A DNA stretch of 64,000 nucleotides from Thermodesulfobacteriota bacterium (GCA_040755255.1 JBFLZZ010000004.1:49849-113848), one strand, 5' to 3'. Counted from the first letter of the stretch, positions 8,501 through 64,000 are shown. Numbers and translations: made by a program. The notes: generated by a model from the sequence alone, not told the origin.

Positions 8501-11500
8501 TTCGCCCGGGCCGCCCGCTGCCGCCATCGACTCAGGAAGCTACCATTCCGTGGCCCTGACCAGCGGCGGCACGGTGGCTGCCTGGGGCCATTCCTTCAAT
8601 GCCGGCCAGACGCCGCTGCCCGCCGGCCTGGCGGGCGTCAAAGCGGTGGCGGCAGGTTTCTTTTTCAACCTCGCGGTCAACGGCGACGGCACGGTGGTCG
8701 CCTGGGGACACCCCTTACTGAACACCTTCGGCGAAACCTCGGTTCCCCAGGGTTTGAACAACGTCAAGGGGGTGGCGGGAGGCTGGCATCATGCGCTGGC
8801 CGTGAAAAACGACGGCTCGGTGGTCGCCTGGGGCGCCGGCACCACCAATACCGGCACCCACCCAGAATACGGTCAGGCGATCATCCCGACCGACATAGGC
8901 CTTGTTGCCGAGGTTGCGGCTGGGGCCTATCATTCGCTGGCACTGAAGACCAACAGGACCGTCACCGCCTGGGGTGGCTTCAACCAATACGGAGAAACCA
9001 CCGTGCCGCAAGGGCTTTCCAGCGTACGCGCCATTTCGGCCGGTTACTCCCATAATCTCGCCCTGAAGCTGGACGGCACAGTGGTCGCGTGGGGCGCCGG
9101 CGACAAGCCTTATATATCCCAGCCTCATTTCGGCCAATCAAACGTGCCGGCCGGCCTTACCGATGTCTTCGCCATCGCCGCCGGCCACTACCATTCCCTC
9201 GCCCTGAAGGCGGACGGCACGGTGGTGGCCTGGGGCGCCGGCACCACCAGCCTCACCAGCGGGGGCAGCAATGGCGTTGAATGGGGCCAGTCGATGGTGC
9301 CGGCAGGACTCACCAACGTCGTCGCCATCGCCGCCGGAGAACGCCACTCCCTGGCCCTGAAGGATGACGGCAGCATCGTCGTCTGGGGCGAGAACACCCC
9401 CAACAACCAGGGAACGGTTCCCGCCGCCCTGCAGATCCTGGCCAACGGCACCATTTCCCCCAATGTTGCCCAGCAGGTGCCCCTCGGCACCACCACCCAG
9501 TTCACCGTTACCCCGAAGACGGGTTACACGGCCTCGGTCGGCGGCACCTGCGGCGGCACTCTGTCCGGCACTCTCTTTACCACCGATGTCGTGACCGGTC
9601 CCTGCACGGTGGAGGCGGTCTTCTTTTCGGGAGGCCACACCGTATCCGCCACGGTCGATCCCCACGGCACCCTGGATGCCGCCTCGACGGTGGTGGCCGA
9701 TGGCGCAACCGCCAGCTTTACGGTGACGCCGAGCACCGGCTACAGCACCGACCAAGCGGTTGGCGGCGACTGCCCGGCCGGCTCCTGGAACGGCGCCACC
9801 TATACCACCGGCGCCATCACTTCCCCGTGCAGCGTCAGTTTCAGCCACACCATCCTTTCCCACACCGTCAGTGCGGGAGTCGATGCAAACGGCACCCTGG
9901 ACAAGGAAACAGTTGCAGTCCCCCACAACGCCAGCGCCAGTTTCACGGTGACGCCGAGCACCGGCTACAGCACCGACCAGGTGGTGGGCGGCGATTGCCC
10001 GGCCGGCTCGTGGAACGGCTCGGTCTATACCACCGGCGCCATTACCGGCGCGTGTTCGATCAGCTTCAGCCATACGCTCCTCAACCATACGGTCAACGCA
10101 ACTGTCGATGGGCAAGGATCTCTTGACCAGTCCTCCTCGACGGTAGGACATGGCGCAACCGCCAGTTTCACGGTAACGCCGGGTGCCGGGCAAACCATCG
10201 ACCCCATTGTTGGCGGCAGCTGTCCGACCGGTTCCTGGAACGGTTCTGTTTACACCACCGGCCCCATAACCGTTGACTGCAGTGTCGTTTTCTCCCACGC
10301 CGTCAACCGTTATCTGGTTTCGCCCAGCCCGGGCCCCCTTTCCTCATTGGTCGCAGCGGGCTATTTCCATTCCATGGTTCTGAACGCCGACGGGACAGTG
10401 ACCCCGTGGGGATATAACCAATATGGCCAAACAACCCAACCATCCGGTTTGACCGGCGTGGTTGCGGTTGCAGCGGGAACTCTCCATTCCCTTGCCCTCA
10501 AAAATGACGGAACAGTGGTGGCCTGGGGGGCGGGTTTGACGGATACCGGGTCCTACCCGGAATTCGGCCAATCGATTGTCCCGGCCGGCTTGACCGACGT
10601 GATCGCCATTACGGCCGGAGACGAACATTCCCTCGCCTTGAAAAAGGACGGTACGGTTGTCGCCTGGGGATTCAACAAGGACGGCCAGGCATCGGTGCCA
10701 GCCGGTCTCAAAGACGTTGTAGCGATAGCGGCAGGTTCCATCCATTCTCTGGCTCTGAAAGGAGATGGTACCGTTGTCGCCTGGGGAGGGAATAAACAGG
10801 GTCAGACGAGTGTTCCGACCGATTTACGCGGTGTGGTGGCGATTGCCGCGGGCGATCAGCACTCCCTTGCCCTGAAGGATGACGGTACGGTTGTCGCCTG
10901 GGGATGGAACGTTTCCGGGGAGAGTACCGTACCCGTTGGCCTGACCGGCGTGGTTGCGATAGCAGCCGGCGGCAATGGCGGCGGAACGTCCCTGGCATTG
11001 AAAGGTGATGGCAGGGTTGTCGCCTGGGGCGATAACAGGGATGGAAAAACCACCGTGCCGGTCGATGTAACCGGGGTGATGGCAGTGGCTGCCGGTGGAA
11101 GCCATTCCCTCGCCCTGAAAAGCGACGGGACCGTCGTTGGCTGGGGGAATAACAACCTGGGTCAGGCGACGGCGCCGGCTGCAGTTACCCTGCTGCCGTT
11201 CCATGGCGTCCACGGCACCCTGTCGCCCCAGGTCCCGCAGAGCATCGCCCCGGGAGCAACGGCGAGCTTCACGGTAACGCCGGAACCAGGGTATTCCGCC
11301 TCCGTGGGCGGCACCTGCGGCGGCACCCTGGTCGGCAACGTTTATACAACCGATGCGATCACCGCCGATTGCACAGTGGTTGCAACCTTTTCGGGAGCGG
11401 GCGATTTCAACGGCGACGGCACCCTTGACCTTGCGGATGCCATCCTCGGCCTGGGGGTGGTCACCGACACCGCACCGCCAGGGACCGTCAACGCCGACGC

Positions 11501-21344: not shown

Positions 21345-22041
21345 GATCGACCGGGTAGGTCAGGAGCCTTGCGGCTCCCTTCCCCCCTCAGAACCGTACG
21401 TGACAGTTTCCCGTCATACGGCTCAAGCGCCTGCTAAGGTTCCCCTTGTTGGGGTTCCCGCAATTAATAATTGCTTCACGATAATGACAGACTGTCAGTA
21501 TAGCCGAAACTTAAGGGCGCACCAGCACAATGGCCGTCGTTTGCTTTCCCTTATGCTACTGATTCACTCCGTTTTCTCGTGAATAGGCACCTGCCAGAAG
21601 TCTGCCTCCTTGCGGAGCCGAGAATGTTGCACTCGGTATCCATGCCATTACAGCATGACATTCGCTTCTTAAGGCATCTCGACCCAGACCTCCAACAGCT
21701 TGCCTTGCGGTTAGCCTGCCCATTGGGCGAAGGACCTGGGGTACCACGTTCCACGTTTTTACCTTTACGGGCAACTTAGGCGGATCTTGAACGCCGGTGG
21801 AAATTGGGTCCCGTGCAGGCACGTTAGCGACCTGCAACCTCTCCGACACGCGTAAACACACGGAAACACGTCTTCGACCTGTTAATCCCCGTAGGTCTGG
21901 CCACAACTGACGGCGCGTGAAGATCTTTGCCTACTCTCGCCATATTGCCCCATCCTAGCCCTTAACCGGGTGGGATTCCCGGACGGGTTTCCGCCTCACG
22001 GCTTCCTCCCAATTCGGTACATTGTCAGGAGGGTTTCGCAC
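21345..22041 (-). ncRNA. ORF-less group II intron-like ribozyme (about 700 nt); both boundaries approximate
   Basis: Minus strand 21424->21391 reads GAGCCGTATGACGGGAAACTGTCACGTACGGTTC. This is a near-consensus domain V with the AGC triad, GAAA tetraloop and 2-nt bulge geometry. A domain VI-like GCAA-capped helix follows (21345-21388) with a bulged A. GTGCG occurs at 22041->22037 (alternative GTGCT at 22066). No RT or other ORF lies between. Confidence 0.65.
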
Positions 22042-22135
22042 CCCGTCATCAGCGCAACGGCAGCACGCCTCCCTAGGATACCGGCGGGGACACGCCGGGT
22101 GATCAGCCAGCACTTAACATGCTGTTATCACATAT

Positions 22136-49021: not shown

Positions 49022-50605
<1,584 letters not shown>

Positions 50606-50629
50606 TCCCATTGACAAAGGAGGCACAGC

Positions 50630-50827
50630 ATGGAATTCGAATCCTTTGAACAGGCGTTCAAGATCTGCCTGGAGTCCGAGGACGGCAGCGAACGGCAGCT
50701 GGAGGCGATGGTCTACTGCCTGGAACACGCGCCGCAGGAACTGCGCGACCTGCTGCGGCAGCGCCACCAGGAACACCTGGCCGCCCGCCACCAGCATCAC
50801 GAGGGCTGCGGCTGCGGCAAACACTGA
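50630..50827 (+). CDS. Small hypothetical protein (65 aa) with a His/Cys-rich tail
   Basis: AAGGAGG RBS 7 nt upstream. Ends ...HQEHLAARHQHHEGCGCGKH. No family recognised. Confidence 0.5.
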   Translation: MEFESFEQAFKICLESEDGSERQLEAMVYCLEHAPQELRDLLRQRHQEHLAARHQHHEGCGCGKH

Positions 50828-50854
50828 GTTTTCCCCATCATCACGGAGCACGCC

Positions 50855-51250
50855 ATGACACTGCAGGAACGCATCAGGGCCGATCTGAAGGAATCGATGA
50901 AGGCGAAGACCGAGGATCGCACCTCGGCCATCCGCGTCATCATGGGCGAGTTCGCCCGCCAGCCGAAAAAGGAACTGGACGACGCCGAGGTAGTCGCCGT
51001 CATCCGCAAGCTGATCAAATCGGAAAGCGAAACCCTCGCCCGGCTCGGCCAGACGTCGTCGCCGTACCTGGCCATCCTCGAGGCCTATCTGCCGGCGCTG
51101 GCCAGCGAGGAGCAGATCCGCGGGTGGATCGCCGCCAACATCGATTTCGCCGGGTTCAAGAACAAGATGCAGGCGATGAAGCCGATCATGGCCCATTTCG
51201 GCAGCAGCGCGGATGGCAACACGGTCAAAAGGATCCTCGAATCCCTCTGA
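50855..51250 (+). CDS. GatB/YqeY domain-containing protein
   Basis: MTLQERIRADLKESMKAK...R.SAIR.I...., the typical YqeY N-terminus; 131 aa. Confidence 0.8.
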   Translation: MTLQERIRADLKESMKAKTEDRTSAIRVIMGEFARQPKKELDDAEVVAVIRKLIKSESETLARLGQTSSPYLAILEAYLPALASEEQIRGWIAANIDFAGFKNKMQAMKPIMAHFGSSADGNTVKRILESL

Positions 51251-51974
51251 GCCGGCGCTGGCCGTCATCACCGACCGGCTTGCCGACCGGCTCGACGGCC
51301 TCGCCTTCGCGCCGCCGGTGGCCTATGTCTACAACCCGCTGCGCTACGCCCGCGCCGGCTGGTCGGCCTACTGCCGGCTGTACGGCGAGGCCCGCCGGGA
51401 GATCCTCCTGGTCGGCATGAACCCCGGGCCATGGGGGATGGCGCAGACCGGCGTTCCCTTCGGCGAGATCTCGCTGGTGCGCGACTGGCTGGCCATCGAA
51501 ACCGCCATCGGCCAACCGGCGCGGACCCACCCCAAAAAACCGGTGCACGGCTTTGCCTGCCGCCGCAGCGAGGTCTCCGGCAAACGGCTGTGGGGCTGGG
51601 CCAGGGAGCGGTTCACCACCCCGGACCGGTTCTTCGCCCGCTTCTTTGTCGCCAATTACTGCCCGCTGCTCTTTCTCGACGGCGACGGCCGCAACCTCAC
51701 CCCCAACGTCCTGGCCGCCACCGAACGGCGCCGGCTGCAGGAGCACTGCGACGAGGCGCTGCGGCACACCGCGGCCCATTTCCGGCCGCGCCTGGTGGTC
51801 GGCGTCGGCCGCTTTGCCGCCGACCGGGTGACCGAAGCGCTCGCCGGCATGGAGATCGCGACCGGCATGATCACCCACCCCAGCCCCGCCAATCCCAAGG
51901 CCAACCGGGGATGGGAAAAGCTGATCGAAAGCGAGTTCACCGCCCTGGGCGTCGCCATCGACGCCGGCGGCTGA
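51213..51974 (+). CDS. Family-3 (SMUG1-type) uracil-DNA glycosylase
   Basis: The GMNPGPWGMAQTGVPFG motif and the HPSPANP C-terminal motif are SMUG signatures. The start is uncertain: ATG 51213 overlaps the upstream gene by 38 nt. Confidence 0.8.
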   Translation: MATRSKGSSNPSEPALAVITDRLADRLDGLAFAPPVAYVYNPLRYARAGWSAYCRLYGEARREILLVGMNPGPWGMAQTGVPFGEISLVRDWLAIETAIGQPARTHPKKPVHGFACRRSEVSGKRLWGWARERFTTPDRFFARFFVANYCPLLFLDGDGRNLTPNVLAATERRRLQEHCDEALRHTAAHFRPRLVVGVGRFAADRVTEALAGMEIATGMITHPSPANPKANRGWEKLIESEFTALGVAIDAGG

Positions 51975-52051
51975 ACACCACCTTTTCCCTTGCCACAACG
52001 GTGCCGGACTGCTATTTCTGAGAGTCCACCGGCAACGCAACGAGGAAAACC

Positions 52052-52483
52052 ATGGCCGCCACCTCCCCCTACGACGAAGCGCACCTGTTTGTCGCCGCCG
52101 TCCGTCTGCTTCTGCACCGCAAGCCGGCTCCGCCGTCGGTGGAGGACATCGCCGAACTCACCGGCCGCTCCCGGGAATGGGCGCTGTACACCGCCCGCAG
52201 GCTCCGGGATCTCGGTATCGTCACCATGGTCGAAGACCCCTTCACCATCAAGGTCGACATCGCCGACCACACCCTCATCGAATCGATCCCGAAAGAGCAG
52301 CCCGCCGACGCCGGGCTCGGCGCCGAGATAGAAAAATTCCGGAAAAGCCGGGAAGACAGCACGAAAAAGGTGGAAGGAATCAAGGCGGAGCTGGAGAAGA
52401 AGAAACAGGATCTGTTCGCCAGCCTCAGCCAGCAGCTCAAAACGCAGAAAGGCAACGATCAGGGAGGGTCCGGCGGCTCATGA
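52052..52483 (+). CDS. Hypothetical protein (possible winged-helix N-terminus, charged coiled C-terminus)
   Basis: GAGGA RBS, 143 aa. SVEDIAELTGRSREWALYTARRLRDLGIV looks HTH-like. The stop overlaps the next start (ATGA). Confidence 0.6.
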   Translation: MAATSPYDEAHLFVAAVRLLLHRKPAPPSVEDIAELTGRSREWALYTARRLRDLGIVTMVEDPFTIKVDIADHTLIESIPKEQPADAGLGAEIEKFRKSREDSTKKVEGIKAELEKKKQDLFASLSQQLKTQKGNDQGGSGGS

Positions 52484-53283
52484 AGATCATCCGCTTTCAG
52501 GACGACACCGGCGCCGTCCGTCTCGGCCACCGGTTCGAAAACGGCAGCGCCGACCTGCTGCAGGGCGACATCCTCGGCACGCTCACCGACACCGGCCGGC
52601 GGCTGAAGGTGGCCAAACTGCTCAGCCCGCTGGCGCCGGCCGCCATCCTCTGCATCGGCCTCAATTACCGGCTGCACGCCGGCGAGTTCGGCGTCGACCT
52701 GCCCGAGTATCCCATCCTGTTCATGAAGAACCCGGCGGCGGCGACCAACCCCGGCGACCCCATCGTCATCCCCGCCTGCTGCCGCAACGCCCCCCAGGTG
52801 GACTACGAGGCGGAGCTGGCGGTGGTCATCGGCAGGAGCGCGAAAAACGTCACCGCCGCATCGGCGCTGGAGTATGTCCTCGGCTATACCTGCGGCAACG
52901 ACGTCACCGCCCGCCGCTGGCAGAAGCTCGCCGGCGGCGGCCAGTGGGCGCGGGGCAAGAGCTTCGACACCTTCTGCCCGCTGGGGCCGGCGCTGGTCAC
53001 CGCCGACGAGATACCCGACCCGCAACATCTCAGGATCAGCTGCCGGCTCAACGGCGAACTGATGCAGGACGCCTCCACCGCCGACATGCTCTTTCCGGTG
53101 GCGCACCTGATCGAATACCTCTCCCAGGACACCACCCTCATGCCCGGCACGGTGATCCTCACCGGCACGCCGCCCGGCGTCGGCTTCGCGCGCACGCCGC
53201 CGGTCTGGCTCGATGCCGGCGACCGGGTGGCCATCGAGATCGAGGGGATCGGCACCCTGGAAAATCCGGTCACCGCCGCCTGA
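52480..53283 (+). CDS. Fumarylacetoacetate hydrolase family protein
   Basis: Internal ATG 52480. ...ILCIGLNYRLHA.E......P.P.LF.K......PGDPIVIP......DYEAELAVVIG...GNDV.AR..Q...GGQW.RGKSFDTFCPLGP. Confidence 0.9.
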   Translation: MKIIRFQDDTGAVRLGHRFENGSADLLQGDILGTLTDTGRRLKVAKLLSPLAPAAILCIGLNYRLHAGEFGVDLPEYPILFMKNPAAATNPGDPIVIPACCRNAPQVDYEAELAVVIGRSAKNVTAASALEYVLGYTCGNDVTARRWQKLAGGGQWARGKSFDTFCPLGPALVTADEIPDPQHLRISCRLNGELMQDASTADMLFPVAHLIEYLSQDTTLMPGTVILTGTPPGVGFARTPPVWLDAGDRVAIEIEGIGTLENPVTAA

Positions 53284-53396
53284 TTCTCTCCGCCTTCGCG
53301 ACGAACACCGCGACGAAGCGATCCAGAACCGTCCTCAGCCCCGCATTCCTCCCGGATGGTTTCTTTCCAGTTGGAATGGCATGAACCGGTCCCCCA

Positions 53397-53816
53397 TCAG
53401 AAGAAGCTGATCTTCTTGTCGGCGCCGAAATGGCCGCGCAGCGCGGCCGTGACCTCGCTCTTCTCTCCCTCCCCCGCGGGGTTTCGCACCCGGTAGACCT
53501 CGGCCACCACGGTCTGGTCGGCGAGTTCCCGATCCCTGGCGGCGCCGTCGCCGGCGAGGAAAAAGGCGCGGAGCGCCGAATCCCGCCAGGGGATCACCCC
53601 CTCCAGGTACATCCCCCAGATGGTGGGTTGCGGCCCGCAGCCGCAGCTGAAGGTCTGGAAGACGAAGGTCCTGCCGCCATGTTCCACGAGACCGGTGGCG
53701 ACCATGATGAAATTCTGGTAATTGAAGTTCACCGGCACGACCTCGCTGCCCCTGCCGCTTTTCAGCAGATCGATCTCCCGCAGGTACAGCCGGTGCTGGA
53801 GTGAAACGTCCATCAT
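53397..53816 (-). CDS. Hypothetical protein (139 aa)
   Basis: ATGATG at 53811-53816 after an AGGA-type RBS. The composition is ordinary for a protein. Contains FSCGCGPQP. No family recognised. Confidence 0.5.
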   Translation of the reverse strand: MMDVSLQHRLYLREIDLLKSGRGSEVVPVNFNYQNFIMVATGLVEHGGRTFVFQTFSCGCGPQPTIWGMYLEGVIPWRDSALRAFFLAGDGAARDRELADQTVVAEVYRVRNPAGEGEKSEVTAALRGHFGADKKISFF

Positions 53817-53941
53817 AATCCTGTTCCTTTTCCCGCGAGCGCGGAGAGGCCGGGCAACCAAACCCGCGGACGGGCACCGCCGGCTTGGGCAGCGGGCAAC
53901 AATTCCGCTGCCAGACCCAAACCGCCACCTGGTGAAACTAC

Positions 53942-55108
53942 ATGCTCTACCGACGGTTCGGCAAGACCAACCTGAACATGCCGGTGTTCAGCGCCGGCTT
54001 CATGCGCGCCAAGCACAGCTGGTCGGACCTGCCGCTGGCAGCGGTCCCCGCCGACAATCAATCCAAGCTGGAGGAGGTGATCCGCCGGGCCCTGGCCCTG
54101 GGTATCAACCATTTCGAAACCGCCCGCGCCTACGGCACCTCGGAGCGCCAGCTCGGCCTCGCCCTCCGGGACATCCCCCGGGCGGACTACCTGCTGCAGA
54201 CCAAGGTGCAGCCCACCCCGGACCCGCAGGTCTTTACCGCCGACTGCCGCGACTCCCTGGCCCGACTCGGGGTCGACCGCGTCGACCTGCTCGCCATCCA
54301 CGGCATCAACGACCACCGCTCCTTCTGGCACGCCTGCCGCCCCGGTGGTTGCCTGGCCGCGGCCCGCCGGCTGCAGGCGGAGGGCAGGGTCGGTCACGTC
54401 GGTTTTTCCGGCCACGGCGACACCGACATCATCCTGGAGGCGGTGCGCCACCAGCAAGACGGCGGTTTCGACTACATGAACATCCACTGGTACTACATCT
54501 TCCAGCAGCACCGCCAGGCGATCCGCGAAGCGCACGAGCGCGACATGGGGATCTTCGTCATCAGCCCCACCGACAAGGGCGGCAGGCTGCAGGCGCCGCC
54601 GCCCCTGCTGCAACGGCTCTGCGCGCCTCTCGCTCCCCTGCAGTTCAACGATCTCTTCTGCCTCACCCGGCCCGGCATCACCACCCTCAGCATCGGCGCC
54701 GCGACCCCGGCGGATTTCGACGCCCATCTGGCGGCGCTGGCCCACCTGGGAGACCGCGATCTGCTGGCCGCCGTCGACCGCCGCCTGGGCCAGGCCATGG
54801 AGACGGCCACCGGCAACGCGCGGCCGGATGCCCTCTGGGAGAAGCTTCCCCCCTGGGACGCGACCCCCGGCTACTTCAACCTGCGGATGATCACCTGGCT
54901 CGGCAACCTGGACCGGGGCTGGCATCTCCGTGAATACGCCCGCGACCGCTATGCCATGCTCGGCCGGGAACTCCCCTGGGTGCCGGGCAGGGACGGGGCC
55001 GACATCGACCGCTTCGATCTGGCAAGAGGCTTCCGCTCCTCGGATCTGGACATGGGAGCGGTCCTCGACCTGGTCCGCGCTACCCACCGGCGGCTGGCAT
55101 CCACCTGA
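53942..55108 (+). CDS. Aldo/keto reductase family oxidoreductase
   Basis: MLYRRFGKT.L..PV.S.G.MR......A.....I..A...GINHFETARAYG.SE..LG.AL, plus DLL.IHG, the typical AKR N-terminal pattern; 388 aa. Confidence 0.85.
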   Translation: MLYRRFGKTNLNMPVFSAGFMRAKHSWSDLPLAAVPADNQSKLEEVIRRALALGINHFETARAYGTSERQLGLALRDIPRADYLLQTKVQPTPDPQVFTADCRDSLARLGVDRVDLLAIHGINDHRSFWHACRPGGCLAAARRLQAEGRVGHVGFSGHGDTDIILEAVRHQQDGGFDYMNIHWYYIFQQHRQAIREAHERDMGIFVISPTDKGGRLQAPPPLLQRLCAPLAPLQFNDLFCLTRPGITTLSIGAATPADFDAHLAALAHLGDRDLLAAVDRRLGQAMETATGNARPDALWEKLPPWDATPGYFNLRMITWLGNLDRGWHLREYARDRYAMLGRELPWVPGRDGADIDRFDLARGFRSSDLDMGAVLDLVRATHRRLAST

Positions 55109-55394
55109 CCGCAAGCGGCGGCGGGCACGAACCGGCCGGCGGCACCCCCCAAGGTGGCCGTTTCCCCCACATCGAACCTCCGCCCGGCTGCGGCCTGTCG
55201 GCCGTCCTGGATCGCTTCGTCACGCTGTTCCTCGCGAAGACGGAGAGTGCCCGCACCGTCATCGCGGGCGCAGTGCGGTAATCCAGTCTGCATCGCGGCA
55301 ACCGTCCCGGTTGCGCACCGCGCGTGGGCAACCCGGCACGAACGGAATTGCCCTGCACCCTCGTCGACCGCCGGCTGACCTCTGCCGACTGCAA

Positions 55395-56693
55395 CTAAAA
55401 AAACAGATGCGCCGCCGCCACCGAGGCGAGGATGCCGGCTGCGTCGGCGCAGAGCGCGGCGGGCAGGGCATGGCGGGTGCGGCGGATGCCGACGCTGCCG
55501 AAGTAGACGGCCAGCACGTAGAAGGTGGTTTCGGTCGAGCCCTGCATGATGGAGACGAGGAAGGAGAGAAAGCTGTCCGGCGCCCGGCTGACCATCTCCG
55601 ACATGAGACCGAAGGCGCCCGAACCGGACAGGGGCCGCATGAGCGCCATGGCCAGGGCCTCGGCCGGCATGCCGATCAGGCTGGTGGCCGGCGACAGCAG
55701 CCGGATGAGGATATCCATGGCGCCGCTTGCGCGGACCATGCCGATGGCGACGAAGATCGCCACCATGTAGGGGATGATCCGCACCGCGGTGGTGAATCCC
55801 TCCCGGGCGCCGTCGGTAACCGCCTCGTACACCTTGACCCCGCGCAGAAAACCGAACAGCAGAAATCCCGACAGCAGGACCGGAATCAGCCAGGCGGAAA
55901 CGGCGTTGACCGCCGCCATCGACAGCAAGGAACCGGCCGGCGCCTGCAGGGAACGGTAAACGGCGGCGCCGGCAAAGGCGAGCAGCACCGCGAACACCAA
56001 CAGGCGGCCCAGGCGGCCGGGCGGCGCCAGTTCGACGGTGGCGACGCCATCCTCTTCTGCCGCATCTGCCGCCGCAGCCGCCGGGGAAGCCGCCGGGACG
56101 ATGCCGCGACCGGAAAGGAGCTTGGCCGCGACCACCGCCACCAGGGTCGAACAGCAGGTGGCGATGAGCGACGGCAGGAAAATGGCGGCAGGCGCGGCGG
56201 CATCGGCGGCGGCGCGCACGGTGATCACCCCCAGCGGCAGCAGGGTGACGCTGGAGGTGTTGATCGCCAGGAACAGGCACATGGCATCGGTGGCGGTGCC
56301 TTTTTCCGGCGCCAGTTTCTCCAGTTGCTGCATGGCGCGGATGCCCATGGGCGTCGCGGCGTTGCCCAGCCCGAGGGCGTTGGCCGCCATGTTCATCAGC
56401 ATGGCGCTCATCGCCGGGTGTTCCGGCGGCACATCGGGGAACAGCCTCACCATCAGCGGTCGCATGGCGCGGGCAACCAGCCGCAGCATGCCGCCGTCCT
56501 CGGCGACCTTCATGATGCCGAGCCACAGGGCCATGGGTCCGATGAGGCCGATGGCCAGGGTGACCGCATCCTTGGCCCCATCGAACGACGCCCTGGTCAC
56601 CTCGTCCATTCTGCCGGTCCAAGCCGCCACCAGGGTAGCGGCCAGGACCATGCCGAGCCAGATGGCGTTGATCGCCGCCGTCTTCTGCTTCAT
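55395..56693 (-). CDS. Nucleoside-recognition (Gate) domain membrane protein, fused SpmA/SpmB-like
   Basis: Internal ATG 56691-56693 after GGGGGAGGA. MKQKTAAINAIWLGMV...GAKDAV.LAIGLIG.MALWLG.MKVAE..G and a second Gate domain. Confidence 0.8.
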   Translation of the reverse strand: MKQKTAAINAIWLGMVLAATLVAAWTGRMDEVTRASFDGAKDAVTLAIGLIGPMALWLGIMKVAEDGGMLRLVARAMRPLMVRLFPDVPPEHPAMSAMLMNMAANALGLGNAATPMGIRAMQQLEKLAPEKGTATDAMCLFLAINTSSVTLLPLGVITVRAAADAAAPAAIFLPSLIATCCSTLVAVVAAKLLSGRGIVPAASPAAAAADAAEEDGVATVELAPPGRLGRLLVFAVLLAFAGAAVYRSLQAPAGSLLSMAAVNAVSAWLIPVLLSGFLLFGFLRGVKVYEAVTDGAREGFTTAVRIIPYMVAIFVAIGMVRASGAMDILIRLLSPATSLIGMPAEALAMALMRPLSGSGAFGLMSEMVSRAPDSFLSFLVSIMQGSTETTFYVLAVYFGSVGIRRTRHALPAALCADAAGILASVAAAHLFF

Positions 56694-56960
56694 TCCTCCC
56701 CCGTCGGTTGTCTTACTCCACTTCCAACTCGCAGAGCGCACGCCCCGTACGCCGAGGAGCGGCGGAGCGCGGCCGACCGCAACGAAACGGTGAAGGTGTG
56801 CGAATGAGTTGGAATTGGATTTCCGGATCGATGCCAGGCGTCACCCTACCACGGCCGGAAAAAAATTCTCTTCTTTTGTCTTTTTTCCGAGACCAGGACA
56901 GCATTTGTCCTCCTGCCCCCGGTACTCTGGACCCAAGAGTAAACCGCAAGGAGGTTTCCC

Positions 56961-57179
56961 ATGATCCGACAGGTAACCGTGTATCTCGACGACAACGAAC
57001 TGGAAACGATGGACGGTGCCTTCCGCTGCGGCCCGGTGGTCTGTGAAAACCTGGGCGGCGGCGAGGAGGTGCACAACGACCTGCTGGACAACCGGGGGTA
57101 CTGGAATCTCGGCGAACTGCGCGCCGAGGTGGCCGCCCTCTTCCGGGTGCCGGCCGAAATGGTGCTGCTCTCCGCCTGA
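56961..57179 (+). CDS. Small hypothetical protein (72 aa)
   Basis: AAGGAGG RBS 7 nt upstream of the ATG. Acidic. No family recognised. Confidence 0.5.
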   Translation: MIRQVTVYLDDNELETMDGAFRCGPVVCENLGGGEEVHNDLLDNRGYWNLGELRAEVAALFRVPAEMVLLSA

Positions 57180-57193
57180 AAATCCGGCGGCGA

Positions 57194-58411
57194 TCAGCAG
57201 AAGCGGGGGGCAGCGGCGGGTTCCGCCGCTGCCTGGCAGGTCTGCCGGAGAATGAGGCTGGAGAGGGCCAGGCTGCCGCGGCGATCCGGTTCGAAAAAGG
57301 ACATGGCGGTGGAATAGCCGCCACCGGTTTCGGGGCGGCAGTGGACCACCCTGCCGGTGAGCGGCAGATAGGCATCGGGACCGATGATCAGCCTGGTTTC
57401 CAGCAGCGCCCCCGGCTCGAAGGAGCGGTCGCTTTCGAACAGGGCACCGCCGCCGCTCAGGTTGCGACAGCGGGCAATGCTGTCATCGCAGCCCCGGCCT
57501 CGCCCCGGCAGCAGCAACAGCATCTCGAAATCGCAGTCCACCCGGGTGTGGCGCCGTTTGCAGGGGGAAAAAAGGCAGATGCGGTTCTTGCCGGCCGCCT
57601 TGGCCCGGTACATGGCCTGATCGGCGTCGCGGAGCAGGGTTTCCGGCCCAGCGCAGTCGAAAGGGTAGGAGGCGAGGCCGCCGCTGATCGATACCCGGAT
57701 GGAGAAGCCATTGTACGCCACCGCCAGCTTTTCCACCTGACCGCGGATGCGTTCGCCCAGCGCCAGCCCCTGCTGTTTGCCGGTATGGGGAAGAAGCACG
57801 ACGATCTCTTCGCCGCCGTAGCGGGAAACGATGTCCTCCTGGCGCCTGGACGAGAGAAAAACCCCGGCGATCGCCCGCAGGACGGCGTCGCCGCCGGCAT
57901 GGCCGTAACGTTCGTTGACGTGGCGAAAATCGTCGATATCGAAGAACAGCAGAGACAGATCGGTTCCATGGCGGGTGGTCATCGACACTTCCCGCTCGAA
58001 CAGTTCGGCGAAAACCCGCCGGTTGTACAGCCCGGTGAGGTAATCGGTCCGGGACAGGGCGATGGTCCGCTCGTACCGCGACTGATCCACCAGTTTCATG
58101 TTGCGACTGGAGCCGGACACCACCGAAAAATAATCGCAGATGACCGTCTGCAGACTGACCGAGCGGCCGAGCCGCGAGCACATGAAACGGTGGTGATGGG
58201 ATATGAGGGTCCAGACGTTCTTCGCGTCCTGGGCGGGGATGGTCTGATCGCAGACGAGGCCGAGCAGCACGGCGTACACGCCGCTGCCGTGCTGTGCCGC
58301 CAGCTTCTCCAGCTTTGCCTCGAGCCCGTCGAAATCATCGAGCGACTGCGACAAAGTGGCAGCGACACCATTGAAGGAACCAACGGCTAACTGATCATTG
58401 TTGTTGGGCAT
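57194..58411 (-). CDS. Diguanylate cyclase (GGDEF) with a C-terminal PilZ domain
   Basis: The first ATG is at 58409-58411 (the track ORF starts at TTG 58417). GGDEF core DYLTGLYNRR...FFDIDDFRHVNERYGHAGGD...RYGGEEIVVLL...AMYRAKAAGKNR. PilZ-like RRHTRV...GGGALF. Confidence 0.85.
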   Translation of the reverse strand: MPNNNDQLAVGSFNGVAATLSQSLDDFDGLEAKLEKLAAQHGSGVYAVLLGLVCDQTIPAQDAKNVWTLISHHHRFMCSRLGRSVSLQTVICDYFSVVSGSSRNMKLVDQSRYERTIALSRTDYLTGLYNRRVFAELFEREVSMTTRHGTDLSLLFFDIDDFRHVNERYGHAGGDAVLRAIAGVFLSSRRQEDIVSRYGGEEIVVLLPHTGKQQGLALGERIRGQVEKLAVAYNGFSIRVSISGGLASYPFDCAGPETLLRDADQAMYRAKAAGKNRICLFSPCKRRHTRVDCDFEMLLLLPGRGRGCDDSIARCRNLSGGGALFESDRSFEPGALLETRLIIGPDAYLPLTGRVVHCRPETGGGYSTAMSFFEPDRRGSLALSSLILRQTCQAAAEPAAAPRFC

Positions 58412-58794
58412 ATACAACTGCCGTGCATCTTTTCCGGCAACGGATTTATCGTGAGCGACAGGGGCAGATGACCTGTCGTTGGGGGTTTTCCCCCTTTTTC
58501 GGCGAACTATGCCCCATCAGAGAAAGAATATCAAGTGCAGGAACAACAAAATGGCCGATCGCCCGCCGGCTTCACGCAAGCGCAAGCCAGGAGAGGTTCC
58601 CCTTTCCTTTTCCGGCAAAATCTGGCAAACAGGTAAGCGTTCCGCAGCGTCACATCTTCGGACGATGAGTACGCGCAAACGGTGGAACGGTCGGACGCCG
58701 CCTCCGGGTCCGTGCGCTCCCCGACCTGCACCAGCGCCGCCGCGGCTCCGTCCACCCTTGCGGCTCCCGGTCACCAGCGAGGCGATCCTGCCCT

Positions 58795-59814
58795 ATGTAT
58801 CTGTCCTACATCCACTATTTCCGTGCCGTCGCCATCACCCTCATCGTGCTCGGCCACGCCATCTACGTCGGCCACTGGCGGATCGACAACTGGGGGGCGA
58901 AGCTGGTGATGAACGCGGTGAGCAACGCCACCGTGTATTTCGTCTTCATCTCCGGATTTCTCTTCCACCACATCTACGCCCACAAGTTCGGCTTCGGGAA
59001 GTTCCTGACCACCCGCATCAAGAACGTCCTCTCCCCCTATCTCGCCCTGTCGGCTCTCCCGCTCGCGCTGATCATCCTCACCGGCGACCGGCTGCCCCTC
59101 GTGCCGGAACGGTTCTACGCAACCCCCTGGCACACCCTGATCTACTTCCTGCTCACCGGCTGCACCTTCCAGCCCTTCTGGTACATCCCGATGGCGATGC
59201 TCCTCTACCTGCTGGCGGTTCCCATCCTGAATCTCAGCCGGAGCGTCTGGTTCCCCATGGTCATCGGTGCCCTGCTCACCCTGGCCTGCGTCGTCCACCG
59301 GCCGATGTTCAACCTCAACCCCCTGCACGCCTTCGTCTATTTCCTGCCGGTCTACCTGCTCGGCATCTGGGCCTCGATCCACAAGGAATGGCTGCTGCCC
59401 TGGCTGGAGAAGCACGTCCTGTACCTGCTGGCCGGAGGCCTGCTGTTTTCCGCCCTGCAGACCGGCTTCTCCCCGGTGGTGGGTAACTATCACAAGTACC
59501 TGTTCCAGACGGCGCCGCTCGACCTCAACCTGCCGGGAAAGATCTGCTTCATCGGGGTGATCATGGTCGGGCTGCGCCGGCTGGAACATCGGAACATTCC
59601 GCTGCTGAACGCAATCGCCGACTACAGTTTCCCCATCTACTTCCTGCACAGCATGGTGCTCGACCTCATCGACCGCCGCTCCCTGTGGCCCTTTTCCGAC
59701 AACTTCCCGCAGGTGCTCCTGCTCACCGTCTTCCTGATGGGAGCGTCGGTGGCGTTGGCCGCGCTGATCAAATTCCTGTTCGGCAAGACGAGCCGGTATA
59801 TCATCGGGTATTGA
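58795..59814 (+). CDS. Acyltransferase family 3 membrane protein
   Basis: IHYFRAVAITLIVLGH...VYFVFISGFLF..., 10 or so TM segments; 339 aa. Confidence 0.85.
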   Translation: MYLSYIHYFRAVAITLIVLGHAIYVGHWRIDNWGAKLVMNAVSNATVYFVFISGFLFHHIYAHKFGFGKFLTTRIKNVLSPYLALSALPLALIILTGDRLPLVPERFYATPWHTLIYFLLTGCTFQPFWYIPMAMLLYLLAVPILNLSRSVWFPMVIGALLTLACVVHRPMFNLNPLHAFVYFLPVYLLGIWASIHKEWLLPWLEKHVLYLLAGGLLFSALQTGFSPVVGNYHKYLFQTAPLDLNLPGKICFIGVIMVGLRRLEHRNIPLLNAIADYSFPIYFLHSMVLDLIDRRSLWPFSDNFPQVLLLTVFLMGASVALAALIKFLFGKTSRYIIGY

Positions 59815-59910
59815 GGCGGGGCGGGCAAGGCTTCCTGGGAAGCTTGGAAAATTTTCTTAGACAACCCATAGCCAAGGAAGTCAACCATACCTTCCTCGGT
59901 GGAATGATAG

Positions 59911-60087
59911 GTGTCAAAGCTTATTTTAACCGGAAACTTAAAGTTGAACATCGATGCTGGCCAAGGTAAAATCATTCTCTACGAGGCCGAAGGTTCATAA
60001 ACCACACTAGATAAGCATCTTCCGAATGAAACGGTCTCGTTGACCCAAGCGCATATGGTCGAATTATTCAGAGAAACTTGTGAGTAA
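59911..60087 (+). pseudogene. Remnant of a RhuM-family gene (N-terminal about 55 codons, internal TAA, then truncated)
   Basis: One frame reads ...GKIILYEAEGS*TTLDKHLPNETVSLTQAHMVELFRETCE*. RhuM proteins begin ..IV.YQ.EDG...I.V.L..ETVWLTQ.QMAELF.. as I recall. Confidence 0.5.
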
Positions 60088-60179
60088 AGGCCAGATCCCC
60101 GCCAAGCCAACGAGGAGCAAACAGAGATACCAGATGAAGGTGAACGCGAGAGCGAAAATCCCCCTTCTCAATTGGCTTC

Positions 60180-62324
60180 ATGAGATCTCACAGGGATGAA
60201 TCAGTGAATTTGCTGTCAGATCTCCCTCTTCGCCTATCCTATCGCTCGGGCCGGGATTACTTGGTAAGGGATTTTTTTATTCCCTGCCTAGAAGCATCCA
60301 TCCTTTATCGACGGGCGGCGGGCTACTTCACCAGTGCCGGTTTGGCTTTGGCGGCACGCGGTGTGGCAAGTCTGGCGTCACGTGGTGGCAAGATGCGTTT
60401 GGTGGTCTCGCCATTTTTGGATCCAGATGATGTAAAAGCCTTAGAATCAGCGACAAAGAACCCTGACAAGGCATTGAGGGCTATTGTAGCAAAAGGCTTG
60501 GCTGACCTTGAGGATGCTTTGGTCAAAGACCGGCTCAACGCCTTGGCTTGGTTGGCGGCAGCTGGCCTGTTGGAAATCAAACTGGCCCTTCGTCTCGATC
60601 AACGGGGTGGTTTTTCAAAGGGAATTTTTCACGAGAAGACGGGAATCTTCACTGATGGCGCAGAAAATCATGTAACGTTCTCGGGTTCATCAAATGAGAC
60701 CGCTGGTGGATTGCTGGAAAACTTCGAGAGCATAAAGGTTTTTTGTTCTTGGAAAGATAGAGAAAGACGGGTAGAAGAAGAGATCGAAAATTTTGAAGCG
60801 CTGTGGAGTGATTCAACACCAGGTCTGAAGGTTATCGAATTTACTGCTGCTGGGCGGGAGTTGTTGGAACGTTTTCGGGATGTAAATAAACCACCTGCTG
60901 GTTTGTCAATTCATAAAATTACGGATTATGCTTCGTCAGCGGAGTTTCGACCGCCCCACAGTTTCGAGCTTCGCCCTTACCAGGCAGATGCCATTCGAGC
61001 CTGGAGCAAAGCCGGCGGAAAAGGTGTCTTTGCCATGGCCACGGGGTCGGGTAAAACATTGACCGCCCTGGCATTGGCCAGCAAGGTGGCAGAAAAAAAC
61101 AAGCCGTTGGTTGTCATTGTCGTCTGCCCCTTCATTAATCTTTGCCGTCAATGGATCAGAGAAATGGCGACCTTCGGTCTTCGGCCTGTTGCCTGCTTTG
61201 AAGGTAGAGAACGATGGCAAGACGAGCTTGAAGAAGGCTACCAGCGGGTTGCGGTTGGGCTCTCGCAGGTTCATGCCCTTGTCGCCACCAACGCTACCTT
61301 CCAAAGCGATAGTTTTCAGTCTCGTATTCGGTCGCGAGTTTCTTCGGGGGCGCTTCACCACCTGTTGATTGCCGACGAGGTTCACAACCTTGGGGCGGAA
61401 CGTAGCAAGGAGGCACTTCCTGAGGGAATCGTCATGCGCCTGGGGTTGTCAGCGACACCCGAGCGCCACTTCGATCCTGTCGGCACTCAAGCTGTTTTGG
61501 ATTATTTTGGCGGGGCTGTTTTTGAATATCCCCTATCAAGGGCCATAGCCGATGGGCGTCTCTGCCGTTACCGGTACTATCCTGTCCCAGTGGAATTGAC
61601 CGATGATGAGACCGCCGAATACGAAGAAATCACATTGAAACTTGCCCGCTTTTTTCGTGGGGGAGATACCGATGAAGAGATTGAAAATGCGGCCATGCGT
61701 CTGCTTATCAAGCGGGCGCGTTTGCTCGCTGGGGCCAAGAATAAGCTTGATGCTCTCGACCAGGTGATTGGCACCTTGCCCGAACCACCAAAGGGGGCCA
61801 TTTATTATTGCGGAGACGGGCGGACTACGGATACGATTGCCGAGGAGGAGGTCCGCCAAATTCAGGCGGTTGCCCGATTGCTTGGCGAAAAGCATGGGTT
61901 GCGGGTGAGAAATTTTACTTACCGCGAGACGACTCAGGATCGGGAAGAAATCCTGCGGGATCTCAGCAGTGGCTTTTTGGATGGTGTGGTTGCCATCCGT
62001 TGTCTGGACGAGGGGATTGATTTGCCTGACTTGAGAATGGGCTTTCTGTTAGCCAGTTCCACAAATCCCCGGCAATTTGTCCAGCGTCGTGGTCGGCTTC
62101 TCAGAAACGCCCCCGGGAAAAGTCGTGCGATTATTTATGATTTCATCATCCATCCACCAGATCTCGGAGGCAGGATCGATGACGATGGCTTCAACATGGA
62201 GCGGTCGTTTTTTCAAAAGGAATTGAGCCGGATCGTTGAGTTTTGCCGCATGGCAGAGAACGGGCCGGAAGCGCTGCATTCCCTGCATGAATTGCGTTTG
62301 AAATACAATCTTCTTTCGGAGTAA
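60180..62324 (+). CDS. PLD-family (HxK) nuclease domain fused to an SF2 DEAH-type helicase (type III restriction Res-like)
   Basis: N-terminus: RRAAGYFTSAGL and HEKTGIFTD...FSGSSNET (H151 at 60630). Helicase motifs: I AMATGSGKT (61038-61058), II LIADEVHN (61374-61385), III LGLSATP, VI QRRGRLLR. The exact start is uncertain (no SD at 60180). Confidence 0.85.
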   Translation: MRSHRDESVNLLSDLPLRLSYRSGRDYLVRDFFIPCLEASILYRRAAGYFTSAGLALAARGVASLASRGGKMRLVVSPFLDPDDVKALESATKNPDKALRAIVAKGLADLEDALVKDRLNALAWLAAAGLLEIKLALRLDQRGGFSKGIFHEKTGIFTDGAENHVTFSGSSNETAGGLLENFESIKVFCSWKDRERRVEEEIENFEALWSDSTPGLKVIEFTAAGRELLERFRDVNKPPAGLSIHKITDYASSAEFRPPHSFELRPYQADAIRAWSKAGGKGVFAMATGSGKTLTALALASKVAEKNKPLVVIVVCPFINLCRQWIREMATFGLRPVACFEGRERWQDELEEGYQRVAVGLSQVHALVATNATFQSDSFQSRIRSRVSSGALHHLLIADEVHNLGAERSKEALPEGIVMRLGLSATPERHFDPVGTQAVLDYFGGAVFEYPLSRAIADGRLCRYRYYPVPVELTDDETAEYEEITLKLARFFRGGDTDEEIENAAMRLLIKRARLLAGAKNKLDALDQVIGTLPEPPKGAIYYCGDGRTTDTIAEEEVRQIQAVARLLGEKHGLRVRNFTYRETTQDREEILRDLSSGFLDGVVAIRCLDEGIDLPDLRMGFLLASSTNPRQFVQRRGRLLRNAPGKSRAIIYDFIIHPPDLGGRIDDDGFNMERSFFQKELSRIVEFCRMAENGPEALHSLHELRLKYNLLSE

Positions 62325-62327
62325 GAG

Positions 62328-62522
62328 ATGGATTCAATGCCACCACCAGAAGAACAAACAAAAGTCCTCACCCACGCCCAGGAGATTTTTAAGGGTGCGA
62401 AGCCGGAGTATCAAACTCTGATTCGGGATATCCTCAAGGAAGAGCGTGACGTCATGCACCTCAAGCGGCGTCATGAGATTCATCAGCGTCTTTATGACCA
62501 TATTCGCCGGGTGATCAAATGA
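62328..62522 (+). CDS. Small helical protein (64 aa), function unknown
   Basis: GGAG RBS. Starts 3 nt after the helicase stop, and its TGA overlaps the ATG of the next gene (ATGA). Charged and basic (…KRRHEIHQRLYDHIRRVIK). Confidence 0.55.
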   Translation: MDSMPPPEEQTKVLTHAQEIFKGAKPEYQTLIRDILKEERDVMHLKRRHEIHQRLYDHIRRVIK

Positions 62523-64000
62523 TTCTAGAACGTCTCGTCCTTGAAAATTTTCGCCAGTTTAAGGGTCGGCAGGAGCTTGTGTTTTCAGATCTCCGGGAAC
62601 GAAATGTCAACATTGTTCATGCCGAGAATGGTTTTGGTAAAACCACCCTGCTCAAGGCCCTGCTCTGGGGACTTTACGGGAGAGATGGTTTGCTGGGCAC
62701 CGATGGCAAGTCCGACGACTTTGAGAAACCTGACCGCATCGTCCACGAAGGGATGGCGCATCGGGCCAAGGACCCGAATGCCATTGCCGCAATGGTGCAG
62801 ATTACTTTTAAGCACGACACGGATCGCTACATCCTCACTCGCCAACTTACGTTGGCCCAACAGAATCTGAATTCAAAGCAGGCCACACTGTCGCTTGAGG
62901 TCATGCGCGATGGGCAAACCTTTGTCCAGGATCGGCCGCAGCAACGCATTGAAGCCATCATTCCAGACGGTATTCGTCGTTTTTTGTTCTTCAATGGTGA
63001 ACGAATTAATTATCTGGCCATGGAGGAGAACAGCTCTCAAGTAACCGATGCCATCCAGCAGATGCTTGGTTTGAAACTCCTTCGGACGACCATCGATGAT
63101 CTCAAGCATCAAAATGTCCGGGGCAAGCTTCGCAATGAACAGAAGGATGCAACCAGCGAAGAAAAACGAGAACTCATTGAACGGCTTTCCAATCTTGAGG
63201 AAGAGATCCAGGAGTTGGAGGAGAGCCGTCGCCAGGCGCTCGTCAATTTGAAAGCAATTGGCGCCGAGCTTGTATCGGTGGACAACAAACTTGCGGCCAA
63301 TCGTGAGGCTCAAGAGCTTCAAGCGAAGCGCATTCGACTGACGAATGAGAAAGAGGAATTGGCAGCCCGTCGTGACGAAGCCGTGCTTCGATTGCAGAAG
63401 CTTATCTCTGAAGACGGTTACACCCTTTTTACCTCTGGTCTCCTTTGCCGTGGCCGGGAGATTGTCGGACGGTTGCGCAGTGAAGGGAAGATTCCCGCCC
63501 GTGTATTGAATACCTTCCTACAAGAGCTCCTTGATAGCGGCAATTGCATTTGCAAACGTTGTTTAGCCGAAGGAACAGAGGAACGTGCTGCGGTTGAGAG
63601 CCTTCTCACCATCGCAGGTGATCAGGACTTCAATAACGCTGTGGGTGCACTTGATCATGCCATGGGGGTAATCGAAGGAGTAGCAAGGCAAACTGAGGAG
63701 CAACTGCGACAGCTCTATATTGAACGGCTGGAATTTATACGAGAAATTCGTAATCTTGACGAGGAACTAGAAGAAATTCACCAAGTCCTTGGAGGCAAAA
63801 AGGACGAAGAGGTTCAGCACCTGGAAGAAAAACGCAAGGAGCTTCAGCTCAGTCGTGACGCCCAGCATGCCGAATCCGGCCGTATCGGTGGGAAAATCGA
63901 GAACGCGGAAGAGGAAAAGAGCGTACTCGAAGAACAGATTCGTCACATTAAAGACAAGGAGGATGCGGCTGCCCGTGCTCAGCGCCGGGTTGATGCCGTG
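62519..64000 (+). CDS. DndD/Rad50-like SMC-family coiled-coil ATPase, N-terminal 494 codons (runs off the window; not in the supplied ORF track)
   Basis: My own translation from ATG 62519 has no stop to 64000: MILERLVLENFRQFKGRQELVF...NIVHAENGFGKTTLLKALLWGLYG (Walker A) ...RRFLFFNGERINYLA (DndD-like), then heptad-rich E/K/R/L sequence with CICKRC at 63545-63562. Confidence 0.85.
   Translation, partial: MILERLVLENFRQFKGRQELVFSDLRERNVNIVHAENGFGKTTLLKALLWGLYGRDGLLGTDGKSDDFEKPDRIVHEGMAHRAKDPNAIAAMVQITFKHDTDRYILTRQLTLAQQNLNSKQATLSLEVMRDGQTFVQDRPQQRIEAIIPDGIRRFLFFNGERINYLAMEENSSQVTDAIQQMLGLKLLRTTIDDLKHQNVRGKLRNEQKDATSEEKRELIERLSNLEEEIQELEESRRQALVNLKAIGAELVSVDNKLAANREAQELQAKRIRLTNEKEELAARRDEAVLRLQKLISEDGYTLFTSGLLCRGREIVGRLRSEGKIPARVLNTFLQELLDSGNCICKRCLAEGTEERAAVESLLTIAGDQDFNNAVGALDHAMGVIEGVARQTEEQLRQLYIERLEFIREIRNLDEELEEIHQVLGGKKDEEVQHLEEKRKELQLSRDAQHAESGRIGGKIENAEEEKSVLEEQIRHIKDKEDAAARAQRRVDAV

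Follow-up and report, generated by a model that had tools for sequence, protein, structure and literature searches.

A probable PbeABC(D) defence cassette, of the kind that partners DNA phosphorothioation, on an AT-richer island of a Thermodesulfobacteriota bacterium

Introduction

The pbeABCD genes were defined in Haloterrigena jeotgali A29 as the partner of DNA phosphorothioate (PT) modification in antiviral defence (Xiong et al., 2019, Nat Commun; PMC6459918). Here we describe a cassette of the same kind at the end of a 64,000-nucleotide stretch of DNA from a Thermodesulfobacteriota bacterium (GCA_040755255.1 JBFLZZ010000004.1:49849-113848), called the window below. An earlier note on this DNA, made from the sequence alone, had drawn attention to three genes in its last part.

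In the archaeal prototype, DndCDEA writes PT marks on the host DNA and PbeABCD blocks the replication of unmodified viral DNA. The four pbe genes are co-transcribed and, together with dndCDEA, give about 10^4-fold protection against the virus SNJ1; pbeB, pbeC and pbeD are indispensable and pbeA largely so. A PT-modified virus escapes, adsorption is normal and replication is blocked, and no DNA cleavage was detected on Southern blots. PbeA contains PLD (pfam13091), ResIII (pfam04851) and Helicase_C domains, PbeB has 66 amino acids, PbeC has an amino-terminal AAA_23 domain and resembles SMC proteins, and PbeD has 152 amino acids. Pairs of PbeA and PbeC, 553 in number, were found across Bacteria and Archaea (all PMC6459918).

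PbeABCD is the same system as the earlier "CxC ABC-ATPase" system, as re-analysed by the Aravind group (Nucleic Acids Research, 2024; PMC10853773). In that work PbeA was reannotated as an HKD endoDNase joined to an SF2 helicase, PbeB as a small protein, PbeC as an ABC ATPase that bears a CxC hook and is grouped as the sister of DndD, outside the SMC proteins, and PbeD as a clade-2 cognate of DndE. From the HKD domain the authors argued that DNA is cleaved, be it the invader's or the host's own (PMC10853773).

Results

Identity and composition of the cassette

The end of the window, from position 60180 to 64000, is taken up by pbeA, by pbeB and by pbeC as far as its codon 494, all on the plus strand and tightly packed (Table 1). 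The cassette is very probably a PbeABC(D) system, a defence system centred on a CxC ABC ATPase and partnering PT modification of DNA. This assignment combines the PADLOC and NCBIfam scores, the CxC motif, the conservation of PbeB, the synteny of related loci, the intact catalytic motifs and the published gene sizes and domains. The trio is thus already known, from its experimental description in 2019 and its re-analysis in 2024. As in the described system, the order is an HKD nuclease fused to an SF2 helicase, a protein of 62-66 amino acids, a coiled-coil ABC ATPase with a CxC motif and a DndE-like protein of the dnd_assoc_4 family, the last being seen in relatives of our locus. The Pfam domains are also shared (PLDc_2, ResIII and Helicase_C in the first protein, AAA_23 in the third), and the relatives are linked to dndCDE.

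Table 1. Positions of the cassette genes and of the features on their upstream side, numbered from the first nucleotide of the window.
Feature	Position	Strand	Length	Remarks
pbeA, amino-terminal HKD (PLD-superfamily) nuclease fused to an XPB-like SF2 helicase	60180..62324	+	714 aa	
pbeB, small helical protein	62328..62522	+	64 aa	
pbeC, 5' part, CxC-clade coiled-coil ABC ATPase	62519..>64000	+	494 of 699 codons	cut by the end of the window
Acyl_transf_3 (Pfam) acyltransferase gene	58795..59814			GC drop directly after its stop
Left edge of the island, non-coding, not common with relative L019	59815..60162	.		GC drop; L019 homology starts only at 60163
RhuM-family amino-terminal remnant, decayed (putative)	59965..60084	+		in-frame TAA at 59998-60000; stop (TAA) at 60085-60087

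The product of the first gene matches the PADLOC profile of PbeA from end to end, with residues 12-698 aligned to profile positions 2-668 of 672 (E 1.6e-233). Against NCBIfam TIGR04095, "DNA phosphorothioation system restriction enzyme", it scores 615.4 bits, the curated cut-off being 600. Pfam recognises ResIII and Helicase_C, and PLDc_2 at 23.9 bits, under the cut-off of 27. The HKD motif of the nuclease is intact (H151-E-K153...GSSN172), and so are the helicase motifs I (GSGKT, with K292), II (DEVH, 399-402), III (SAT, 424) and VI (QRRGR, 635). When PbeA was used to search the sequences of the PDB, relatives of the helicase core only were found, the nearest being archaeal XPB/Rad25 (E 5e-30). 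Three start codons come into consideration, ATG at 60180, GTG at 60204 and TTG at 60210. An AGGGA sequence lies 7 nucleotides upstream of the GTG codon, the ATG codon has no such site, and similarity to relatives starts at residues 6-12. The true start of pbeA is uncertain, and may be GTG 60204 or TTG 60210.

The third gene could be read to its end from P0001, a full-length protein of 699 amino acids recovered in a protein search, which is 100% identical across the visible part. In PADLOC the gene product matches PbeC (E 1.5e-86), with DndD far behind (E 5e-36); against the NCBIfam model of DndD (TIGR03185), P0001 scores 147.9 bits, below the curated cut-off of 245.85. The ABC motifs comprise a Walker A sequence GFGKTT with K41, the sequence FLFFNGERI at residues 155-163 and, in the full-length P0001, an LSTGE signature at 564. 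Near the midpoint of the 699 residues P0001 contains the CxC motif, C343-I-C345, followed by C348. The C343-I-C345 motif is invariant in all eight PbeC proteins compared and absent from the seven DndD paralogs of the same loci. In an AlphaFold model of PbeC, of which the secondary structure alone was used, two long helices (residues 215-340 and 354-527) are predicted with the CxC motif in the short loop between them, a placement as expected for a zinc hook at the apex of a coiled-coil.

Between these two genes lies pbeB, separated from pbeA by a gap of 3 nucleotides (GAG) and joined to pbeC by an ATGA overlap. Each of the 12 related loci long enough to show it has an orthologue of the same size in the same place, after pbeA and before pbeC, and within the clade the carboxy-terminal 50 amino acids are nearly invariant in the orthologue alignment. 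In the comparison with relative L011, non-synonymous divergence is low (pN 0.04) and synonymous sites are saturated (pS 0.72); across the orthologues pN is 0.04-0.07, again with saturated synonymous sites. By these measures pbeB is a real gene under strong purifying selection. The orthologue from Geobacter (L002) matches the PADLOC PbeB model weakly (E 0.0083). A single-sequence AlphaFold2 model contains two helices, formed by residues 7-23 and 26-63 (pLDDT 75.5). In this bacterial clade PbeB is, from its alignment and model, a strongly conserved, predicted two-helix protein, unlike the published description of the family as rapidly evolving across clades and mostly disordered (PMC10853773).

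The earlier note had assigned the domains correctly from the sequence: PLD/HKD nuclease and SF2 helicase in the first gene, a coiled-coil ABC ATPase of the DndD/Rad50-like kind in the third, and between them a small gene. All the motifs it cited in the first and third genes are at the residues it gave, and both the open reading frame map and the junction sequences agree with its three packed genes on one strand, a 3-nucleotide gap followed by an ATGA overlap. It was also right in proposing an anti-phage defence cassette on an AT-richer island.

Related loci

Related loci were collected by a scan of genome contigs with PbeA (L001-L003) and by look-ups of PbeC homologues (L011-L019), and were compared in a single tblastn table. 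Exact look-ups with the products of pbeA and pbeB and with P0001 gave no match, nor did metagenome contigs scanned for an exact stretch of 42 nucleotides. The PbeA scan returned only relatives of at most 79% identity: Desulfuromonas sp. CSMB_57 (L001) and Geobacter argillaceus (L002) at 79%, and an Opitutales metagenome-assembled genome (L003) at 69%. PbeA, PbeB, PbeC and PbeD occur together in 12 of the 12 related loci with enough DNA. In each of the nine loci extending further, a convergent dndE-dndD-dndC set follows 0-5 kb after pbeD, mostly with dndB and a divergent dndA. The PbeD of L011 belongs to NCBIfam TIGR04062 / Pfam DNA_S_mod_dnd_assoc_4 (132 bits, cut-off 74). The co-occurrence of the three families of the window beyond this genome, by which the earlier note had proposed to judge its reading, is found in every related locus examined.

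The closest relative, L019 (ENA ERZ27236853), was found via a member of the 90% cluster of P0001. It has 95.3% DNA identity to window positions 60163..64000, and its PbeA is 95% identical to ours. Its genes are arranged in the order pbeA, pbeB, pbeC, pbeD (146 amino acids), a GIY-YIG-like gene of about 200 codons and a DndB-like gene of 740 codons, followed by dndE-dndD-dndC-dndB on the opposite strand and by dndA. Upstream of the L019 cassette are ArdC, ParA, AbiEii and Fic-like genes. Since these surroundings differ from those in the window, the pbe module has evidently moved between genomic contexts.

The segment between pbeD and the dnd genes is variable. In the closest relatives two extra genes are present between pbeD and the convergent dndE (L019, 12672-15522; L011, 5619-8446; L014, 5209-8036). 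The first encodes 194-208 amino acids with a GIY-YIG-like motif, CPGIYVWY...LYIGKAESSLKNRLYKH, and the second 740 amino acids with sub-threshold DndB/DGQHR similarity. Elsewhere the same position is occupied by HATPase_c_3 genes (L016 and L017, accompanied by GIY-YIG in L016) or by GmrSD (L001). In two loci pbeA stands apart from pbeB and pbeC: in L018 (4162-10001) HATPase_c_3, GIY-YIG and DDE transposase genes are inserted, and in L003 (3121-5764) about 2.6 kb of DNA with a weak resemblance to DndB. The adjacency of pbeA, pbeB and pbeC is therefore not absolute. Directly upstream of pbeA in the Geobacter argillaceus locus, L002, a WYL-domain protein is encoded (9315-9977; PADLOC WYL, E 3.6e-11), ending 2 nucleotides before the listed open reading frame. 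It is a possible transcriptional regulator of that cassette and has no counterpart in the window.

PbeD occurs in two forms among the relatives. The long form has 238-241 amino acids with an amino-terminal HARE-HTH domain (L011, 4866-5582; L002, 14403-15128; L016, 12097-12822); its Pfam scores, 24.5-26 bits, lie around the cut-off of 25.9, and L011 alone passes. The short form, of 146-167 amino acids, is like the archaeal prototype of 152 amino acids (L019, 12214-12654; L017, 12171-12611; L014, 4669-5172). In L019, the 113 nucleotides upstream of pbeD hold stop codons in the pbeD frame.

When compared with the published PbeABCD system, the window locus differs in being bacterial, with Desulfuromonas and Geobacter as its closest relatives at 79% PbeA identity. 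In its clade, as known from the relatives, dndB is present, which is missing from the archaeal prototype, PbeD is either long (HARE-HTH, 238-241 amino acids) or short (about 146), the accessory genes between pbeD and dndE vary, and PbeB is strongly conserved.

The island and its left edge

The G+C content (GC) is 0.62-0.71 between positions 50000 and 59750 and 0.48-0.56 from 59750 to the end of the window, and the fall comes right after the acyltransferase stop at 59814, where the earlier note had placed it. The island that carries the cassette has about 50% GC, was acquired horizontally and is inserted straight after the acyltransferase gene, in a host of 62-70% GC. A Logan contig from a related strain (L010, run ERR14827887, 3.6 kb, 98.5% identity) stops at window position 59827, 13 nucleotides past the acyltransferase stop, its positions 3574-3586 corresponding to 59815-59827. 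It is the sole public contig found to carry the acyltransferase gene, and its end coincides with the fall in GC. The junction of the island may vary between strains, or it may be a place where the assembly breaks. No tRNA gene that could mark an integration site was found within 50000-64000, nor was a terminator-like site found between the acyltransferase gene and pbeA. Sigma-70-like hexamer pairs at 59944-59972 and 60040-60067 are consensus matches only.

Within the left edge there is a short reading frame with the translation GKIILYEAEGS*TTLDKHLPNETVSLTQAHMVELFRETCE*, in which the earlier note had seen a decayed RhuM fragment. When its 39 residues were compared by tblastn with 72,556 plasmids, 48 records matched. 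Among the 15 plasmid matches listed, 13 are annotated as rhuM, one has no feature at that place and one belongs to an unannotated record; the matches listed have 46-53% identity over 33-37 amino acids, with E values of 5e-3 to 9e-2. A Pfam scan gave no match for the remnant, nor for an antisense open reading frame of 112 codons at 59637-59975. The tblastn matches are weak but agree with a RhuM origin of this putative remnant. As the DNA homology of L019 begins at 60163, the segment 59815-60162, including the remnant, is specific to this insertion.

Two observations concern the surrounding host DNA. Just upstream of the acyltransferase gene, a GGDEF-PilZ fusion is encoded on the minus strand (57194-58417), a diguanylate cyclase with its own domain for binding cyclic di-GMP; this is an ordinary host signalling protein with no relation to the island. 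About 38 kb upstream of the pbe cassette lies a group II intron, a mobile element, two domains of which score above the Rfam gathering threshold on the minus strand (RF00029, 21350-21426, 68.5 bits; RF02012, D1-D4-7, 21958-22099, 87.2 bits).

Discussion

The window ends inside pbeC, and the relatives point to what follows. Past position 64000 one would most likely find the missing 205 codons of pbeC, then pbeD (a DndE-like DNA binder of the dnd_assoc_4 family), one or two accessory genes and a convergent dndE-D-C-B set with dndA. The earlier note had rightly anticipated further genes beyond the window, and these are most likely pbeD and dnd genes. It is highly likely that dnd genes adjoin the cassette in this genome.

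Several points weigh against the assignment or parts of it. For this genome pbeD and the dnd genes are derived from relatives and are not seen, and there is no dnd gene within the window (1-64000). The window PbeB has no match among the hidden Markov models of PADLOC (even at E<=1), Pfam or NCBIfam. Confidence in the PbeC model is low (pLDDT 61.5, pTM 0.28), PbeC has no match in the sequence search of the PDB, and neither PbeA nor PbeC has a solved structure. Of the published PbeAC pairs, just 42% lie within 10 kb of dndCD (PMC6459918). The mechanism is itself disputed, Xiong et al. having seen no cleavage of viral DNA (PMC6459918) and the Aravind group reading the HKD domain as a sign of cleavage or suicide (PMC10853773).

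With only 42% of the pairs linked to dndCD, a solitary cassette is possible in principle: a genuine Pbe/CxC system that does not adjoin dnd genes here, and either has no activity or works with a different modification, for example methylation of cytosine. The 64 kb seen are free of dnd genes, the upstream context is unlike that of L019, and 320 of the 553 published PbeAC pairs have no dndCD in a 10-kb range, and 155 of these 320 lie near methyltransferases (PMC6459918). Against this, all nine far-reaching relatives in the clade, including the 95%-identical L019, have convergent dndE-D-C 0-5 kb from pbeD. The lack of a dnd gene in the window fits these relatives, because their dnd genes are always on the far side, past 64000; the side not seen is exactly where every relative has them. 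A solitary system is therefore improbable here. Several sources label close homologues of the third gene product "DNA sulfur modification protein DndD", which together with the PADLOC DndD match would make it DndD itself and the cassette part of a PT-writing operon, not a restriction or defence module. DndD and PbeC are sister clades, and they share the ABC head and a coiled-coil of about 400 residues. DndD differs in lacking the CxC hook, and its partners are DndC and DndE, for modification, and not an HKD helicase. The hook present in our protein, its NCBIfam score below the DndD cut-off and the separate bona fide DndD that relatives carry beside DndC and DndE leave the DndD reading very little room.

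The earlier note had regarded the cassette as one that could not be placed in a named system, or as a variant or undescribed system resembling Lamassu (LmuA-LmuC-LmuB). The layouts are superficially alike, with a nuclease effector, a small middle protein or adaptor and an SMC/Rad50-like coiled-coil ATPase, and an ortholog of the third gene product weakly matches LmuB (E 3.1e-24). The same ortholog matches PbeC at 8.3e-135, about 110 orders of magnitude more strongly, so that the analogy comes down to a distant resemblance between coiled-coil ABC ATPases. The first gene encodes a full-length PbeA, not LmuA, and is named by NCBIfam as the restriction enzyme of a PT system; the relatives are constantly linked to pbeD and dnd genes. 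Lamassu belongs to other families and has no SF2 helicase, DndE-like partner or PT linkage, and LmuB is not among the best 25 of 75 PADLOC matches of the gene 3 fragment in the window. A Lamassu-like system is practically negligible as an explanation. Since PADLOC and NCBIfam place the trio as PbeA-PbeB-PbeC (PMC6459918, PMC10853773), and orthologous loci have dnd modification genes immediately downstream, the view of an undescribed system fails. Both outcomes are among those that the earlier note had itself named as refuting it.

PT-dependent protection against viruses is an experimental result for the H. jeotgali system only (PMC6459918). Taking the cassette as PbeABC(D), a mechanism can be outlined. 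A PbeC dimer joined by the CxC zinc hook, together with PbeD, would load onto DNA, scan it and read its PT status. PbeA would be the effector, its XPB-like SF2 motor translocating and its intact HKD site probably nicking or cleaving DNA without PT. PbeB, small and helical, may regulate the complex or act as its adaptor. The escape of the PT-modified virus indicates discrimination on the invader's DNA, and this mode of action is modestly favoured. In the model proposed by the Aravind group (PMC10853773), PbeB would instead act as a negative regulator until a viral trigger removes it; the PbeA nuclease would then cut the host DNA and kill the cell in an abortive infection. The intact HKD motif, the small protein encoded between effector and ATPase, and the failure of Xiong et al. 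to see cleavage of viral DNA (PMC6459918) are in keeping with it. That same escape of the modified virus (PMC6459918) points the other way, to self/non-self discrimination on the invader. Protection was lost when pbeB was deleted, and no toxicity of the deletion was reported (PMC6459918), and PbeB is here strongly conserved, not fast-evolving. Abortive infection is for these reasons a rather unlikely mode of action.

The first gene product was also compared with other families. DISARM, Azaca and generic PLD-helicase assignments gave local matches only (PLD_Helicase, the next unrelated PADLOC model after PbeA, 2.3e-13; ZacB 4.2e-5), with no Drm protein among the best 25 PADLOC matches. The phospholipD_antiphage model (NF042964) was rejected at 79 bits against a cut-off of 1100, and type I/III Res subunits at local helicase matches (REase_I 1e-4), there being no methyltransferase or specificity subunit present. 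Type I/III Res, DISARM DrmC and PLD_Helicase proteins are alike in combining an SF2 translocase with a nuclease, and DrmC, Nuc and BfiI share the HKD chemistry; the window system is set apart by its partners PbeB, PbeC and PbeD. DndFGH, the classical PT-dependent restriction module, fills the same niche as the restriction partner of Dnd modification. It has no sequence relationship to the cassette and a different gene set, and it nicks DNA and translocates on it.

A broader reading for the bacterial clade would be an extended Pbe system beyond the four-gene prototype, with the GIY-YIG-like protein and the 740-residue DndB/ParB-like (DGQHR) protein as integral members and PbeB as a conserved two-helix subunit. 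The two accessory proteins could, for instance, add a further nuclease arm together with a regulator of that arm that senses DNA. This reading draws on sequence outside the window or only partly inside it, and accessory nucleases in Dnd neighbourhoods are partly covered by published surveys; we consider it doubtful. The points that are mildly new concern the clade and not the window: the conservation, in the closest relatives, of the extra genes that separate pbeD from dndE, the two forms of PbeD and the unexpectedly good conservation of PbeB.

As a discovery the cassette carries little weight, as the system is modelled in both PADLOC and NCBIfam and the first gene would be called "DNA phosphorothioation system restriction enzyme" under standard annotation. 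It does have some practical value. The cassette predicts PT-modified DNA in this genome, which bears on barriers to transformation and on DNA handling, because PT DNA degrades in Tris-based electrophoresis. The locus also marks an insertion hot spot beside the acyltransferase gene. With its HKD, helicase, Walker and CxC motifs intact, it offers a clean bacterial example for the debated question of whether PbeA cleaves DNA.

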